A stretch of DNA of 64,000 nucleotides. Origin: a virus (Duplodnaviria > Caudoviricetes). The first letter of the stretch is position 1; each line of letters opens with the position of its first letter. The notes under the pieces are model-generated. The model worked only from the letters and a program-made list of their open reading frames with translations, did not search any database and was not told the origin of the DNA. A program made the translations under genes and the position numbers. Shown here piece after piece: positions 28,080-60,536 of the stretch. The stretch lies in the IMG/VR virus record IMGVR_UViG_3300014039_000019, positions 1-64,000 of that record; one strand, 5' to 3'.

Positions 28080-31000
28080 TTATTTATTTCTGTCTGAATA
28101 ATTAACAGTAAGTGTATCGAATAAAACTCTTTCATTTTTTGTAGAATCAAAATCATTTACTGTAATTTTTCCTTCTAAATCTTTAGTAAGTACATCTTTA
28201 ACATAATACATATTAAATGTAACTTTATCATATCCGAAGTCTGCCATTATATATGTTGGTTGTACTGGTAGAGTACCAGTATAAGCATACCACCAAGGTT
28301 GTCCGTTACCATTATCATGTATCGAACTTGAGTTTTCAGATTTTAATAAGTTTTGGCCGCTAGGTAAATTAATTGCTTTTTCTTTACCACTTTGTTTATA
28401 ACCTGTTGCTTGGCACATTATATAATATGTTCCGTTAGCTTTATTAGCCGTTCTTGTTATGCTTTCATCTACTATTTTTAATTGAGTAGAACCAGTAGAA
28501 ACAACATCTACATAATTATTATATGGAGCAAGTGTGAATTTTCTAGTAGAAGCATCATATGTAGCGCCTTTATATCCTGTATATAATGGTATACTTCTAC
28601 TGTATGTATGGTTGTGCATTATATTATTTTTATGAACGTTACTTCATAAACCGAGAATTTCTCTCGCCCTAACTTTCATTAGGATATTAGACTATTTCTT
28701 CACCCTATATAATAGAGGCAAACCTTATCCGACATACTTTGTCGTACTCTCTTGCGAGATAGTCTTTGAAGTTTATTCTTATTATTTTATTTTAAGCTCA
28801 TCTTTTAATATTTTTTCAATATCATTGAATTCTAAATAAGAGATTCTTATTATTTTAATATTGTTGTCTATACAGAACTTGGTTTTAACTGTGTCTCTTA
28901 TTTTTCTATCTATAAATGTTTCGTAACCTCCAAAATGCTTTATTATTTTATAATGTTGTATTCCATCATATTCAATACAACAATTATAGTTAGGCAAATA
29001 AAAATCAAAAGGTAAACATTTATAAAATTTACAATTATTAAATTTATATTGAGGAATATACTTAATATTATATTTTTTTAATATTTCTCTTATATTTTTT
29101 TCTCCTTTGCTTTCATTGCAAATAGGGCATCCGCTATTATTGTTAATCACATTATCGTAGGTAGCGTTAAATATATGTCCCTTTTCACATTGTAAAACAA
29201 TTTTTTCTTGATTATTTTTGTATTTAGATAATAAATGAAATCCTTTTTTTTGAAGATTTGTAATTACATCTTTTGCATCGTTAGTCATATTCTCAATCAT
29301 ACATTGTTTGCATCCACTTCCTTTTATAAAACTATCTAAACGAATCTCGTGATAGTGACCATTAGGGCATTGTAACTTTAATTTGGTTTTTTTATTTTTA
29401 TATGGTTCTAACAACTTATATCCTCTTTTTTCTACTAAAGATTGTATATATTCTTGAGAATGTTTTTTATTAGAATATTTTGATTTTGATGCTGATTTAT
29501 TTGTATTGATGTATCTTCTTTCAAAAGTGTATAATGTTACTTGTTCGATATTTCCTTTTTCGTTTTTAAATTTAATTATATCTCGCATATTTAAATTTTT
29601 CTTTTCATTTAAAAGTATCAAGTTATTATTTTTACAAATATTTTTAATTTGAGAATATGTATATTTATATTGTTTATTTAAGGAACAAATCGAACATCTT
29701 TGTCCTTTCTTAAAATTATTAAAAGACATTTCAAAAATATGTCCTTCCGGGCATTTGATTTTCATTTTTTTATGTATATTAATATATTTATTATCTAATA
29801 ATATGTAGCCATGAGAATTTATATATTCTTTTACGTTATTATAATTTAATTTTTTTCCTATTTTACTCACCTCGTAAAATTATTTGAGCTTAAATAAATA
29901 AATTTAGAATCTTACCTGCATGAACATCCATTTTGATATAATTTATTTATTATCATTATATCCAAGTACTTAGGATTTAACCATATACTTATCCTTACGT
30001 TTTTTCTACTTTCGTACCTTCATAACCTCTTTTCAGGGTTATTGTGGTGTAAGGCTTTAGGAATTACCTGCAATTAAATTTGTAATTTTTGAAACCGATT
30101 ACTCGATAACTAGGGCAACATTACCCGCATAATACAAAATCTACCTTATGTTTTTCTATATAAGGAATCCATTGTTGTAGTCTCTTAGTTCTAACTATTG
30201 TAAAAGGACTTAAGTGACAAGTAACAACTGTCCATCTAGGCTTAGTCGCTCTTGCTTCCACCTTAGTTAGATCAGCATCTAAAAATTCTATTTGTTTTCT
30301 TAAAAATTCATCAGTTTCTACTCCTGCATACATATATTCGGTATTAGAATTTATTACTACAAAATGCACAAATCCAACATCAAAACTATAGCTAGAAACC
30401 ATTGGGACTTCTTTATCCCCAACTACATGAGGTTCATAAGCATTTAATAATGGTTGATTTTCGAAAGTACCATAATATTCAAATGCTGTACCAAATTTTT
30501 TGTCTATTAAATCGTTATTTCCACAATTAAGAATATGTGGCATATTTTTTAAATTACCTTCATGATATTTATAATAATATCTCCATTCTTGTGGTCTATT
30601 CGCATTTTGTGAAATATCGCCTGTATTTAAATGACAATCAAAATTAGGAGTACCATTTGAATATTCATAATGTTCTATAGCATCACAAGCTGTTTTTACT
30701 GCTTTATATTCATATTCTGTAAATCCTTGTTCGTCAGTAGTCCATAACATTTTTAAACTATTAGATTGACCATATTCTTTTACTTCAAATGTTTCTATAT
30801 CTGTAAGCATACCTTCTACACCTACTTGATATTCATAAGTTCCATAAGTTAAATTATGAATCATAACTCTATGAATATTTACTACTTGGTTATATAAATT
30901 CACGATATCTTTTTCAGTTTTCTTTTTAATCCATTTTGATTCTCCTTGTTTTCTATATTTAATGATTCCGTCATAATCTGTTACTGGAGTTTCAAAAGTA

Positions 31001-50700: not shown

Positions 50701-53700
50701 CTAATTTTAGTTTACTTTCATCAATTGTCCCTGTTGTAAATAGATTTTTAACTGAATCACTTGCATTGATATGCTTAAATTCAGTAAGTTTCTTTTTAAG
50801 ATTTGCCAATTTTGTTTCTGTATCTTTTGTATCTAAATCTACTTTTATATTGTTATCTCTATTTTTATTTATGTCGTTAATTTGTCTCATGATGTCAGTA
50901 TCTATTTTATCTCCACCAGCAAGCGAAATAGGAATTTTTAGTTCTGCTTCTGTAAGCTCTCCATTAAACATTTTTTCAAGGAGTTCAGTAGCCTTTGCGT
51001 CTCCTACTTTACCTGTATTTTCAATAGTAGTTGCTAAAGTAGCCACTAATGATGCCTCAACTTTTGTTATTGTATTCTTCCCGTCAGTAACTCCTTCTAT
51101 TATCTTTTGTAATTGTGGAGGTAAGTTCTTATAACCCTCACCCTTAGCAACATCAGTTATAAGTTTGATTTTTTGTTCAAGAGTAAGAGTATCACTTGTC
51201 ATATTTTGCATAAACTCTTCTAACTCTAAAAATTGAGATTGAAGTTGCATAGCTAGCTCGTCTTTATTTATAGTGATATCGAATAAATTCTTTCCAAATC
51301 CTGATAAGAATTTTTCCAATTTCATTTTGCTTAAATCTAAGCCGCCTTCTAACTGACTTGTAAACCCTGTTATCCATTGACTAGCATCTATACCAGTTAT
51401 TTTTTCTAACTCTTTTGCAACTCCTGCTATTTGTTTTTGATATCCCTCTATATTACCTGTTTGTTGAAATACTTCATTTGCTTGTCTTAAAGTTTCGTTC
51501 CATTTTTGAACATCTTTATAATGGTCAACTGAATATTCAGATATCTTATCAAAACCTTTTAAAAATTCATTTCTTTTACTTAAATTATCTGCAACTAATT
51601 CATTAGACCAATCATATAATCCAATTAAATCTTTCATCTCTGCTTTTTGTCTATTGCCAAGTAAAGAATAAGATTTATATTTAGTAGACATTAATTCATT
51701 AAATGCTACGGCTTCTTGTTGAGATTCATATTCTGCATATTGAGCATTTTTTTCTGCGTAACTTTTATTTAAATTTGCTATTGATTCTTGTTGATTAGCG
51801 TATGCCTTAGCGTACTGTTTACAACCTTTTTCAAAATCTTTTAAACTTAACCCAAATAAATTTGCTGGGTCTTGGAATGGATTTTTTACGGCATTTTTTG
51901 TTATAACCTCATCATATACATTTGTTTTTAATGTTCCATTAGTTCTATAATCTCCAACTAATTTACCTGCGTCTTGAGCTGCAGAAGCCTGTTGTGCAAT
52001 TAATAGTTGATTTTCTTTTTCTATCGCTATTTCTAATTTTTCAATCAATGCATCCGTACTATTCCCCAATGCCAAAATAGGGTCTTGATTTTCGTCATAA
52101 CCCATTACTAACTCTGGGAACATTTCTGCAAGTTGTTGTTTATATCCGCTTAAACGAGCCATTTCATCAGAAGTTAGATCAGCTTTATTTGCAAGCTTTT
52201 CGTAATCTTCAGCCATAGATTTTAAAGCAGTCCTTTTATCATTTAAATTAGATATCTCTGCTTGAGTTGATTGTATTCCTGCTTTTGATGTTTCATAAGC
52301 TTTTTCGGTTTTATGAACATAATTGTCAATAGCACTAACTGCTGCGCTTATTCCACCTATAGCTAAAGACAATAACGCACCATTTAATAACGAAACTCCA
52401 ACAGACATAGCTATAGATTTAGCTCCACCTAAAACCATTGATTTAGCGGTTTCTTTGACACCTTTTGTTACTTTTTCTGCTTGAACTGCTCCTTTAGATA
52501 ATGTATCGCCAGTTCTTTTTAAGTTTCCTTCTGCATCTTTCGTACATACCATAAAACTTGTCGAAGTGCTTTTTAATGTTCTTTGTATTCTATTACTATT
52601 TGACTGAACATCGCTAGCTAAAGCTTTGGTATTTTTAGACATTACCCTTCTCATATTTTGAGAAGCGTTTGCCATATTATTTGATACAACTGTTACTTGT
52701 GATTGGGCTTGTTTAAAGTTTTTAACAAATCCGCTACCTATAACACTTAAATTACTTCCTGTTGCTTTAGCTTTTATAGCATTAAATAAGGTAGCTATTG
52801 AAGCTATCGCTACTGGAGTTGCCATATTTATTTTATTTAAAGCGCCTAAAAAATTATTAATTCCTTCAATGCCTGCGGCTAATCCTCCGACTGCATTTTT
52901 AGCCATATCTGATGTAATAGTAGTTGTTACTAATTGTCTAAATTGGTCTTTTAAAGCCACTATTTTACCTTCAAGACTGTCTATAAATCTTTCATTTTCT
53001 TTTTCGGCACTACCAACTGTAAATCCTTGATTATATTCGTCTTGATATTGTAAAACTGTTTCCCAGTTATTTAACATGGCTTGTAATGTATTTGCATGAT
53101 ATTTTTGTCCTATAGCTTCTGTAATAGTAGCTCTTTTAACTTCATTTAATGAATCCCATTTATCATGTAATTCATCTAGTATTTCGAAAGAACTCTTTAT
53201 AGTTCCTTTTTGCATATCTACTACATTAATTCCAGCCATATCTCTTAATGTTTTTGCAGTTTTATTTAATGTTACTCGTCCTGTCTTTGCAGAATAAGTA
53301 ACCCCATTTAAGCTAGTTGCCATAGATTTTAATGCATTACCAACTTTTGAAGCATCTTGTACGGTTTCATTAGCACCTATAATCATACCTATACTTTGGC
53401 TTAAAGTATTACCACTTGCTTTTAATTGAGATGCTGAACGTTGTAGTGCTTCCCCTACATCGGCAGATGTAACTGCAAAGTTGTTCGGTTGTCTTCATAT
53501 GGGTTCGCTACTTCCCATACAGTTCTCTTATGAACTTCTCTAGCTTTCACTAGAAGCCGAGACTATATCTTCATCTTGTTTTTTTTAACAAGAGCTTTCC
53601 ACTTCCACTCGCTTGAGTGTACTTCCCTGTCGAGAATAGTCGTTGAAGTTTATTCTTGGTTTATTTCTTTAGTTAATATATTTTCAATATTATTAAATTC

Positions 53701-56700
53701 CCAATAAGGAATTCTAACTAATCTAATGTTATTTTTATCGCAATATATATTCTTAATTGTATCTCTTATTTTCGTATCTATAAAACTATTTTGTCCACCA
53801 AAATACTCACTAATATAATAATGTTGCCTACCATCATATTCAAGACAACAGTTATAATCAGGCAAGTAAAAATCAAAAGCTAAGGTATTTTTATATTTAC
53901 AATCTTTAAACCTATATTGTTCTATATAATTTATATTATTTTTATCTAAATATTCTTTAATTTTTTCTTCGCCTTTAAAAATAGTTTTACATTTTGGACA
54001 TCTTCTACCTTCTTTAAAATGATGATAAGACACTTTATGTATATGTCCATTTGGGCATATTGTTTTTAATTTTGTTCCACAATTTTTATAAGACTCTTTA
54101 TCAGATATAACTTGGTATCCTTCTTTTCTAAATTCTGAAACTATATTTTCAAAAGAATATTTAAATCTCGGTTTACATTTAGGACATCTGCAATTACCTC
54201 TCCTAAAAGAATCATAAGACAATGCTTCTGTTATATGCCCATTAGGACATTTAAGTTTCAATTTTTGTTTATTTGATTTATATAAACATAAAACTTCATA
54301 ACCGTATTTACTAAAATATTCTTCTATATATTTCTGTGTTAATCTTTTACTCATTTAATCACCTCTCTTCTATTATATCCATTTATATATTGCATTTAAC
54401 ATTATTTTAAAATAAACTTTAGAATCTTACCTGCTGATTACCCAATCTTTATTTTTTTTAAACATTCACGCCTATCGTTTCCAATTACGTTGTAGTATTA
54501 AAGCTCTTAGGGTTTCCCAGTCAATTCAAAAAGTTAAATAATACAATCGCTTGTATTACTGGGCGATTAGTTTACATTCACCCGCATAATTTGCCTGATC
54601 CATATAATCTGCTAATTGACTATATGCACTACCTGCACCTTTAACCTTATCAGTCATAGGTTTTAATGATTTAGCAACTCCGCCATATGCAGAAGCTATA
54701 GTTTTAATATATTTATCTGCCGTCTGCTCGTCAATTTCTGCTACGTTAGCATACATATTGACACTCTTAGCATATTGCATAGCATCTTTTACATTATCTA
54801 TACCTAATTGGAAGGCAGATGCAGTTGAGTTTATGATGTCTACAGAACTTCTTGCAACTTGTTGTCCTGTTTCATAAGCCATTTCTTTGACTTCTTGTAA
54901 TTCTTGTTTTGTACCTGTGAAGCTTGCAGGAGCAACTTTTTCCATATCTCTAAAAGCACTATCTAATTCTACTATTGTATCGTTTATTGCATAGATACCT
55001 TTAGTTATTTGCATACCTAAAATATTACCTAAAGAATAAGTAGATAAAGTAGAATATAAGTTAGAAACGAATTTGCTAGCTGACTTCATAGAAGTACTTA
55101 TTCCTGTCGATGCGCTTTTAGCCGCTCTATTTGCGTTTTGGAATCCTTTTTCTAATTTTGAAGCTTCGCTATTAATTCTTCTTAATTGAGCCTCTGCTTC
55201 TTTAAAAGATACTTTTCCTAATCCTTGCAATTCATCTTTCAGTTTTCTTATAGGAGCTACATCTTTACCTATAGATTGGAATTTCTTTTCTAATTCATTT
55301 AATCTTTGTGTAGCTGTTTGAATAGATGTGTCTAAATTAAATCCTTTTATATCAACGTTGGATTTAGATTTTAATTCATCAAATTCCTTTTCTAATTCAT
55401 TAAGACTTGCAACTAATCTTTTTACGTCACTTTCTGCTGCTTCTGAATTTAAATCTATCTTTGTTCCAGATAAAGTTTTAATTCTTTGTATAAGGTTGTC
55501 AATATTTTGTGTATCTCCGAAAAATTTTGTTTTCTTAAATATTTCGACCTGACTTTGAAGTTGTTGTAATTGGCTCTTTGCTTGAGTCGCTTGATTTCCT
55601 AACTTTTCACTAAAAGTAATATTATTATCTATACTTTTTAATTCCTTATCCAGTCTTTGAATTTCAGAAATTAATAAAGATATTTGTTCGTATGGTTTAT
55701 CCATTTTTAAAATGTCGTCTAAACGGACAGTTTTTAAATAATCAACCATGCTTTTAACTTCTTGTATTCTACCTGTTTGAGATGAAGGTATATTTGTCTT
55801 ACTCATAACATTAGACAATTTAGATTCTAATGAAGTAACACTTTTTTCTATATTTGTAAATTCTTTTGCAAAATTTGTTATCGAAGCTAAATTACCTTCT
55901 GGAAGTTTAACATTCCTCATTAATGAAACTGTAGCTTCTATTCTAGTATCAATTTTTTCTAATTCAGCGCTTAATAATTGATATGATTGTGTATTGATAT
56001 TTGTTTTAGATAAAGTTTTTTCTAATGAGTTTTTTTGACCTATTAATTTGTTATATTCTTTTAAGGCATCCGCTTGAGTTTTTATGCCTGTTGTATTTTT
56101 AGCTATAGAATTTATCTCATTATTTAGCCTCTTTAGCTTACTCTCTGCCTCTTCTAAAGGAACGTTAGCCAAATTACTTAATTCTGTTTTTATCTTTTCT
56201 GCACTAGAGGTATCTTTACCCATTGATTGGAGTGCTTTAGTTAAAGTATTAATCCTTTCTAAACTAGAATTTACACTTGTAGTAAAATCAAATGATTTTT
56301 TTGCACTTGTTGAAATCGCACTTAAATCCCTTAATTCACCTTCTACAAGTTGAATTGTTTCAGATAAATTTCTCAAATCTGTTGTTGCAGTTTTTGAATC
56401 AATATTTATTTTTGCATTTTTTAAATCAGAGTTAAATAAAGCTATAACTTGTTGAAGTCTATTTTGTAAATCTGTTGTGTTTAAAAATCCTTTTACATTT
56501 TTTAATTTATCTAACTCTTGCCCTAATTGTGCAACTTTCTGATAGGCTGCTTCAACCCTAGTATTAAAATCGCTATTAATTGTTATATCTTTTGCTGTAG
56601 TTTTTACTTTTTGCAAATCGCCTAAAAGAGTTGCCATATGTTCGTGAGAGTTTGATATATTTAAGATATTATCTAATTTAGTACCTTTTATTCTATCAAT

Positions 56701-59250: not shown

Positions 59251-60536
59251 TTATACAGTTTTTTTGTCTATTTCTAATATTAAGTCTTGGTCATCAACTA
59301 ATATGTCCCAAGTTAAACTAAAGTCTGATATTTCTTGTGCTGATATTGTTAAGTCAGCATTAGGTTGCGCTTTCGCTTTGCTGAATTTTATTGATTTAAC
59401 TTCTGTACTACCATCTTCATTAACAACTTCAAATGTACCTTCCATTTTGTAATATTTGCTTGGTATAGTACCTTTAACTTGTATTTTAGTACCAGTTATT
59501 TCACCACCAAGCATTTGAGCTAAGAAGAAGTCATCTATAACTTGTGCATCCATTTGTAATGCCTAATGTTCACATAGGTTCGTAACGCCTATATCGTTCA
59601 TCTAAGAACTGCCTTATCTTTCGATAAGAGAGCAGACTATATCACTTCCCTGATTTTCTTACAGGGATTCCTCCACTTCCATTTAAGGGGTTCTCACCCA
59701 CTCCATTAACTTGAGCCGTACTCCTATTGCCTATTTCAAGGCTACTCACGATATTACTCGCTTTCGGTTAGTCGTTGAAGTTTATACATTTGTTTGTTTA
59801 AAATTTTATCTATATTATCAAATTCCCAATAAGGAATTGTTATTAATTTAATTTTATTTTCTGTGCAATAATTTTTCTTTTTCAAATCATGTTTTCTTTG
59901 TATTTCAAATTTTTCTTTACCTCCAAAATATTTTACTGGTTCATAATGTTGCACTCCTTGATATTCGATACAGCAATTATAATCGGGCAAATAAAAGTCA
60001 TAAGATAAATTACACCCTCCTTCACCTTTTAATGAAGGATATACTTTTTGTCTTTCATAAATAATTTTATTATTATTTAAATAATTTATTATTTTTTCTT
60101 CCGTCCATTTTGTTCTCATATTATCACCCTTCATATTTAACAAACAAATATATCTTACCTGCTGATTGCCCATTGTCAGATATAATAATTATATCCAAAG
60201 CACTTAGGGTTTAACCATATGCCATCTAATTAATTTTTTCTACTTTCGCAACATTCACGCTTAGGATTTAACCTTACGTTGTAGTTTAATTAGCTTTAGG
60301 GGTTTCCAGCAATTCAAAGGATTTGCTATGCTAATTACTTAACATAGGGAACGTTATTTTATTCCTTTTCTTTGACCTGCTATAGTTATACATAAATCTC
60401 CTCTTTTGTAAGCTTCGAAGTTTTCTGATTCAGTTGTTATATTAAAACTATTAAGAAAATCTATAGTAGTAGTATCTTCAGGATTAGCTAAATTTGTTAA
60501 AGTTAAGTCGCAAGCACTTTTTATTGCATATCCCAT
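59251..60536 (-). CDS. spliced major tail tube protein, about 161 aa (exons 60536-60362 and 59561-59251)
   Basis: joined ..AGQRKG-T-LQMDAQV..; beta-rich acidic tube-like sequence; followed by terminator and chaperone. Confidence 0.8.
59562..60361 (-). mobile_element. group I intron in tail tube gene (5' boundary 60361 or 60360, see findings)
   Basis: P1 GGAAU/GUUCC; AAUUGCUGGAAA, AAUCAGCAGG, CUUCAACGACUA, GAUAUAGUC; P9.0 CU/AG; terminal G. Confidence 0.9.
59754..60119 (-). CDS. intron-encoded endonuclease, nuclease domain only (probably internally deleted)
   Basis: MRTKWT fused directly to EEKI..YDFYLPDYNCCIEYQGVQH..HD..K..IPYWE; no Zn repeats. Confidence 0.75.
   Translation of the reverse strand: MRTKWTEEKIINYLNNNKIIYERQKVYPSLKGEGGCNLSYDFYLPDYNCCIEYQGVQHYEPVKYFGGKEKFEIQRKHDLKKKNYCTENKIKLITIPYWEFDNIDKILNKQMYKLQRLTESE

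Follow-up and report, generated by a model that had tools for sequence, protein, structure and literature searches.

The window analyzed here, a stretch of 64,000 nucleotides, is part of a 143-kb IMG/VR phage record and carries a tail-tube gene on its minus strand, which is interrupted by a group I intron (Table 1). The two exons, when joined, encode a protein of 162 residues. The N-terminus of the tube ORF (MGYAIK) is also that of two intron-less homologs, P0001 and P0003, both of which read Q-R-K-G-T-L-Q-M across the junction site. An AlphaFold model of the tube protein (22 homologs) has a pLDDT of 73, and its top Foldseek match in the PDB is 9jgh_C (E 5.6e-8, TMq 0.75), with the tail-tube proteins 8xkn_B and 8ygm_A (8ygm being the tube of phage SPR) among the further top matches. 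The gene is followed by two chaperone-sized genes and the tape-measure gene, and because of this position and the tail-tube matches in the PDB, the tail-tube label is considered sound. In the model, the splice junction falls inside a long beta-strand at the core of the protein. The nearest solved folds also include the SPR tail tube as the trigger of the DSR2 defense (8ygm, 8ygc). Three ENA contigs of less than 3 kb (P0004, P0006, and P0007) have parts of the tube gene fused to bacterial SmpB, ribosomal protein L6 or a fiber-like protein, and are probably chimeric assemblies.

Table 1. Features of the tail-tube gene, its intron, and the phosphatase intron, in window coordinates.
Feature	Position	Strand	Remarks
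Exon 1, tail-tube gene	60362..60536	-	58 codons and the first base of the Thr59 codon; boundary from comparison with intron-less alleles
Exon 2, tail-tube gene	59251..59561	-	Opens with CA of the Thr59 codon; stop codon included
Group I intron, IA2 type, 800 nt	59562..60361	-	DNA absent from intron-less alleles; U60361 first, G59562 last
P1 5' strand	60361..60365	-	GGAA (exon) and U60361; U-G pair tops the stem and closes the loop
Internal guide sequence GUUCC	60348..60352	-	G60352 would pair with U60361 before step 1 and could pair with exon-2 C59561 in P10
P2 hairpin, 9 bp, GUAA loop	60326..60347	-	Directly abuts the guide sequence
Homing-endonuclease ORF in P6 loop	59754..60173	-	Likely start at 60119 (366 nt); 3' end overlaps P6', J6/7, and P7
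R element (J6/7 and P7 5' strand)	59769..59777	-	Rfam alignment
S element (J8/7 and P7 3' strand)	59635..59643	-	Rfam alignment
11-nt 3' tail after P9.2	59562..59572	-	Last base is terminal G59562; GAACAx tail motif
Second offset intron, purple-acid-phosphatase-like gene	28617..30123	-	Exon ends GGG; U pairs with G of guide GCCC; terminal G, then CAC AAC CAU

The tube intron has the core of an IA2 ribozyme, with a long insert from P7 to P3' and three hairpins after P7'; P3, P4-P6, the R and S elements, P8, and P9 can all be assigned from the alignment to Rfam. A P9.0 pairing is compatible with the sequence. The search of the window at the Rfam gathering threshold gave no match. Against RF00028, the tube intron of the window, in which the endonuclease ORF fills P6, scores 25 bits, and an ORF-less allele from another contig (L004) reaches 47.3 bits (E 5.7e-11), slightly short of the Rfam cut-off of 50. 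The P1 pairing given in the first-pass annotation of this DNA (GGAAU with GUUCC) was found at the positions listed in Table 1. Its loop has 8 nt, and P1 together with the abutting P2 folds with a z-score of -5.2. Extra P5 hairpins, which the same annotation had taken as a mark of the anomalous introns, do not hold as such a mark, since the hairpin is missing from two ORF-less tube alleles, L004 and L026, whose boundaries are the same. The endonuclease ORF matches phrog_559 (7e-33) and phrog_9084 (2e-31), with no match in Pfam, NCBIfam or the PDB. The likeness of the 3' tail to the ligated exons was considered as a possible copy of the target, which was rejected as the tail motif is family-wide.

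Three sister genomes (G002, G003, and G005) have alleles without the intron that share at least 18 identical bases with the window on each side of the insertion site, and therefore the inserted DNA is uniquely U60361 to G59562. On the minus strand, exon 1 reads ...AAA GGA A and is followed by U60361, the intron ends in ...UUAGG, and exon 2 begins with CA UUA CAA AUG. The 11 nt that follow P9.2 can be aligned position by position with the tail of canonical relatives, whose last G corresponds to G59562; this identifies G59562 as the terminal G, as first proposed. Five contigs from other samples (L004, L026, L034, L035, and L036), three of which have an ORF-less tube intron, share both boundaries with the window while their exons differ synonymously. 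An indel error at a boundary, which had been named as a possible refutation, is thus excluded, as is any other sequencing or base-calling error, because six independent contigs have the same boundaries. One of these alleles (L026) came from a scan of metagenome contigs with 18-mers, where it was the one true addition, next to 12 unrelated matches that are probably due to chance. In public sequencing runs, words of the window were present at a share of at most 0.21, with RNA runs at 0.06-0.09.

According to the textbook rule and the biochemistry of the Tetrahymena ribozyme, cleavage occurs 3' of the wobble U. Joining the exons after U60361 and after G59562 confirms the +1 frameshift that had been predicted for canonical ligation, with a stop codon 11 codons later. 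When U60361 is dropped, the product reads GGA ACA UUA and encodes K-G-T-L-Q-M, identical to the intron-less homologs, so that the earlier claim of a restored frame also stands on alignment with P0001 and P0003. The ligated exons pair with the guide at 8 of 9 positions, as had been described. Compared with the intron-less alleles, the 3' end of the intron is ordinary in that it ends in G, and the 5' exon ends in A60362, leaving the wobble U in the intron. The residue at the junction is constrained: the Thr59 column has Thr in 14 of the 22 homologs, polar residues in the rest, and a hydrophobic residue in none. Purifying selection acts on exon 2 from the first codon onward (pS 0.45 and pN 0.09 versus another intron-bearing lineage).

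The offset recurs in another intron of the window, which is located in a purple-acid-phosphatase-like gene (Table 1). There is a single G near its 3' end, directly before CAC AAC CAU, and intron-less alleles of the gene (G002, L039, and L040) encode C-G-H-N-H. Exon 2 opens with the leading His of GHxH, a motif that closes the Pfam Metallophos domain, and is conserved from this codon onward (pS 0.43, pN 0.025). The Gly codon at the site is GGG in the intron-bearing alleles, whereas it is GGC in the intron-less ones. Taken together, the codons downstream of it also set the two kinds of allele apart, with CAC AAC CAT ACA in the intron-bearing allele and CAT ACT or CAC ACT in the intron-less ones. 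The same 10-nt 5' flank and start of the P1 loop occur in the canonical tape-measure (TMP) intron (53486-54579) and in this offset intron (30113-30132), which suggests that ectopic homing into a similar site gave rise to one of the two from the other.

Related introns were collected by scanning IMG/VR with P4-P5 words of the tube and phosphatase introns, which gave 71 loci, and further introns were found through homologs matching exon 2 only. Automated calling of P1 and reading frame across the 71 loci was discarded as too noisy. Both ends were fixed for eight introns, namely the tube and phosphatase introns, L078, L079, L104, L065, and introns 1 and 2 of L139. In each of the eight, the canonical join shifts the frame and leads to an early stop, and the offset join recovers the protein encoded by the closest intron-less homolog. 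Where the first base of the intron differs from the first base of exon 2, only the offset join restores the expected residue: Thr in the tube protein, His of GHxH in the phosphatase, and Asp in L065 as compared with L104. The terminal G is invariant in the eight introns and the next position is variable (C, C, C, U, U, A, U, and A), as expected if this G occupies the G site. Canonical introns were also recovered in the same phages, including TMP-B, an intron of G003 that interrupts a GNND motif, and one of 523 nt in G005, and therefore the offset is not created by the method.

The related introns vary in sequence at the cut. Intron L078, at the phosphatase site in another phage, has compensatory changes relative to the phosphatase intron of the window, with U-A in place of G-C at the -1 pair and C-G in place of U-G at the +1 pair. 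In the tape-measure gene, “intron A” (L068, L071, L075 and relatives, G002/G003/G005) lies 13 nt upstream of the site of the TMP intron of the window; its cut site has a C-G pair, and P1 is free of wobble pairs throughout. Several sister introns are inserted after GGG, GGGG or GGAG, and some offset variants are only 370-460 nt long and contain no ORFs.

A 5' exon ending before the wobble U is known from group B IStrons, which have IA2 ribozymes with a 5' exon ending in G and U as the first intron base (Tourasse, Stabell and Kolsto, 2014; PMC4227781). In RT-PCR of BcISt1, the ligated exons lacked the U, which was retained in the full-length circle, and several partial circles were obtained, including one without the first base (PMC4227781). 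For this register, the authors propose a correlation with a U-G pair that closes the P1 loop and has no stable pair above it (PMC4227781). The core of the tube intron is 78.7% identical over 146 nt to the IStron ribozymes of c-st and D-1873. In the c-st IStron, the exon ends in GAGG followed by U, a 5-nt guide (G plus 4) abuts P2, and exon 2 is open for 73 codons in the offset reading only.

The tube intron resembles the group B IStrons (BcISt1 of Bacillus cereus and CbISt of the Clostridium botulinum phages c-st and D-1873) in its IA2 ribozyme with the U of the U-G pair as first base, in having this pair atop P1 beside the loop, in the 5-nt guide abutting P2, and in the GAACAx/GAAUAx tail after P9.2, a motif that precedes the IS in IStrons. 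On the other hand, group B IStrons have an IS607-family component with AU-rich inverted repeats after P9.2, whereas the tube intron has 11 nt there and no IS607-family ORF A or B, its only ORF being the homing endonuclease in P6. The IStrons have a target ending in GG and a 3' end of CGG, in contrast to the GGAA target of the tube intron, with A at -1, and its 3' end of AGG. The tube intron also differs in lying in an essential virion gene and spreading by homing. Because it has no transposase and carries its endonuclease in P6, it is not an IStron. The tube ribozyme is a member or close kin of the group B IStron lineage, and most likely functions in the same manner.

Other relatives keep the canonical register. 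The introns of Twort-like staphylococcal phages (two ORF-less introns of phiIPLA-RODI, and Twort orf142) are likewise hosted by the tail-tube gene, and their 5' half is 78% identical to that of the tube intron. RODI intron 2 even has the same P2, abutting the guide. Unlike the tube intron, the RODI exon ends in the wobble U, as checked against the intron-less Kayvirus allele, the guide consists of G plus 3 nt, and there are two pairs above the U-G pair. The lysK intron of phage K has the P1 stem of the phosphatase intron (GGGU with GCCC) and a 3' half that is 78% identical to that of the tube intron, but is canonical by coding, with an exon that ends in GGU and two A-U pairs possible above the U-G pair. 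Published mobile group I introns in structural genes of Firmicutes phages often start with or soon reach a stop codon, as the tube intron does; in the passages of that publication retrieved by term searches, no mention of a shifted 5' splice site was found.

From sequence comparison we infer the following chemistry at the tube intron, together with a candidate for what sets its register. A mobile IA2 group I intron in the tail-tube gene, with a ribozyme from a lineage that is also found in group B IStrons, would be cut at its 5' end one base pair below the U-G pair, as in the rest of the tube-intron lineage. Exogenous G would attack the A60362-U60361 bond, so that the exon ends in A, Watson-Crick paired to U60351, and the wobble U60361 becomes the first base of the intron. 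The exon would then join after the ordinary terminal G59562, giving GGA ACA UUA, the message of the intron-less phages. G60352 may pair with U60361 first and then with exon-2 C59561 to form P10. A 5' cut before the wobble U was the first option in the earlier annotation, and we consider it very likely to be correct, as it alone restores Thr, the His of GHxH, and Asp, and is supported by the eight related introns and by the IStron RT-PCR (PMC4227781).

The register may be determined by a U-G pair that closes the P1 loop without a stable pair above, as suggested by Tourasse et al. (PMC4227781). No pair above the U-G pair is possible in the tube intron and at most one weak A-U pair in the other offset introns, whereas the canonical relatives RODI, lysK, TMP-B, and Quidividi have two or more, and these counts fit the correlation proposed in 2014 (PMC4227781). 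The same P1 stem is canonical in the lysK and TMP-B introns and offset in the phosphatase and L079 introns. The sequence of P1 alone does not explain the register, because the lysK intron is canonical with the P1 stem of the phosphatase intron. P10 pairing favors the offset register in the tube intron and is weak in the phosphatase intron, and the -1 base is A in the tube intron versus G in the published IStron cases. The distance from P2 to the partner of the last exon base is 4 nt in introns with a first type of P2 (RODI-2, tube, L104, and L139 intron 2) and 9 nt in those with a second type (intron A, phosphatase, and L078). Such a ruler was rejected as a register rule since it holds within P2 types only, and lysK and TMP-B are canonical despite sharing the P1 stem of the offset L079 and phosphatase introns; we regard it as a hint.

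Several other explanations of the one-base offset were weighed. If splicing were fully canonical, the extra U would stay in the message and the frame would have to be restored by +1 ribosomal frameshifting or similar recoding, as the first-pass annotation had also suggested. Programmed frameshifts are used in phage tail genes, and the GGG-U of the phosphatase could permit a slip of the Gly-tRNA, but a slip on GGA in the tube gene would not be cognate, no slippery site or stimulator is common to the eight junctions, and recoding would not reproduce the wild-type residues. It would also leave unexplained why an exact deletion of the U recreates the wild-type codons, in a protein that is required in hundreds of copies per virion, and DNA scans of tube genes found neither alleles with an extra T nor an Ile codon at the junction. 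We thus consider recoding very unlikely. Mutants of Tetrahymena J1/2 are known to miscleave by one base, and the ribozyme might accordingly cleave imprecisely, at both positions, with part of the message in frame. The partial circles of BcISt1, among them the one that starts a base late, can be read in this sense (PMC4227781). An imprecise cut is nonetheless very unlikely, as the arrangement is kept in several essential virion genes across many lineages and the exons are under strong purifying selection.

The remaining option of the annotation, a canonical 5' cut after U60361 combined with a 3' site one base past the terminal G (after C59561), would leave the 5' rule uniform, with the guide G facing a pyrimidine at -1. 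In L078, L079, L104, and L139 intron 1, where the first base of the intron equals that of exon 2, it predicts the same mRNA as the cut before the U. The two differ at the other junctions: the shifted 3' site would give GGA AUA UUA in the tube gene, with Ile59 at a column that is never hydrophobic among the 22 homologs, Tyr in place of the metal-binding His of GHxH, and Val in place of Asp in L065. In the second step, cleavage is 3' of the nucleotide in the G site, and a shifted site does not explain a G that is invariant in eight introns and followed by a variable base; in BcISt1, moreover, RT-PCR has the U leaving with the intron (PMC4227781). A shift of the 3' site is therefore highly improbable in our judgment. 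Phage genes that were split by endonuclease insertions are known, and exact splicing would not be needed if exon 1, ending at a stop codon in the intron, and exon 2, starting at Met62, were made as two polypeptides. An in-frame AUG is indeed present three codons past the junction, with a purine-rich stretch upstream, but the break would fall within the long core beta-strand of the modeled tube fold, conservation of the phosphatase exon 2 begins at the very first codon although this exon has no ribosome-binding site, and the ribozyme core is conserved even in the ORF-less copies. Such a gene in pieces can hardly be credited.

The predicted cleavage before the wobble U in the tube intron of this gut phage is a new example of a rare but known quirk and not a new mechanism, because the same behavior has been published for group B IStrons (PMC4227781). 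What goes beyond the published IStron cases is the A at the last exon position, the location in essential virion genes, and the existence of eight or more natural variants. The one-base shift known from IStrons is thereby extended to ordinary homing introns of essential phage genes, and the variants, some of which are short and ORF-less, offer a compact test system for the question of cleavage register left by the 2014 paper (PMC4227781). In phage annotation, the textbook rule applied to offset introns results in false frameshifted or split structural genes. It is possible, though we hold this tentatively and at somewhat short of even chances, that the virion genes of SPbeta-like gut and wastewater phages commonly harbor a whole lineage of endonuclease-bearing and ORF-less introns with a 5' site set by the geometry of P1 and not by the wobble pair. 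A-U, G-C, U-A or C-G would be tolerated at the cut, and the same lineage may also be the source from which the ribozymes of group B IStrons were recruited.

Further elements related to these introns were encountered in other contigs. The tail-tube gene of a distant relative (L139:1503-2848) contains two introns of the offset type, separated by a mini-exon of 23 nt. The second of these is inserted at a K-K-G/D motif that resembles the R-K-G/T site of the window, which hints at movement between look-alike sites. In another contig (L138:100-1290), the intron site of the tube gene is five codons downstream of that of the window, the exon has A or G as its final base, and P1 contains no pyrimidine-G pair. 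Five guide/exon pairs resembling those of intron A are found in L064, L070, L072, and L074. The exact 23-nt P4-P5 word of the tube intron also occurs in two IMG/VR contigs (L091 and L127) with IStron-like elements, which have a TnpB/OrfB-like ORF after P9.
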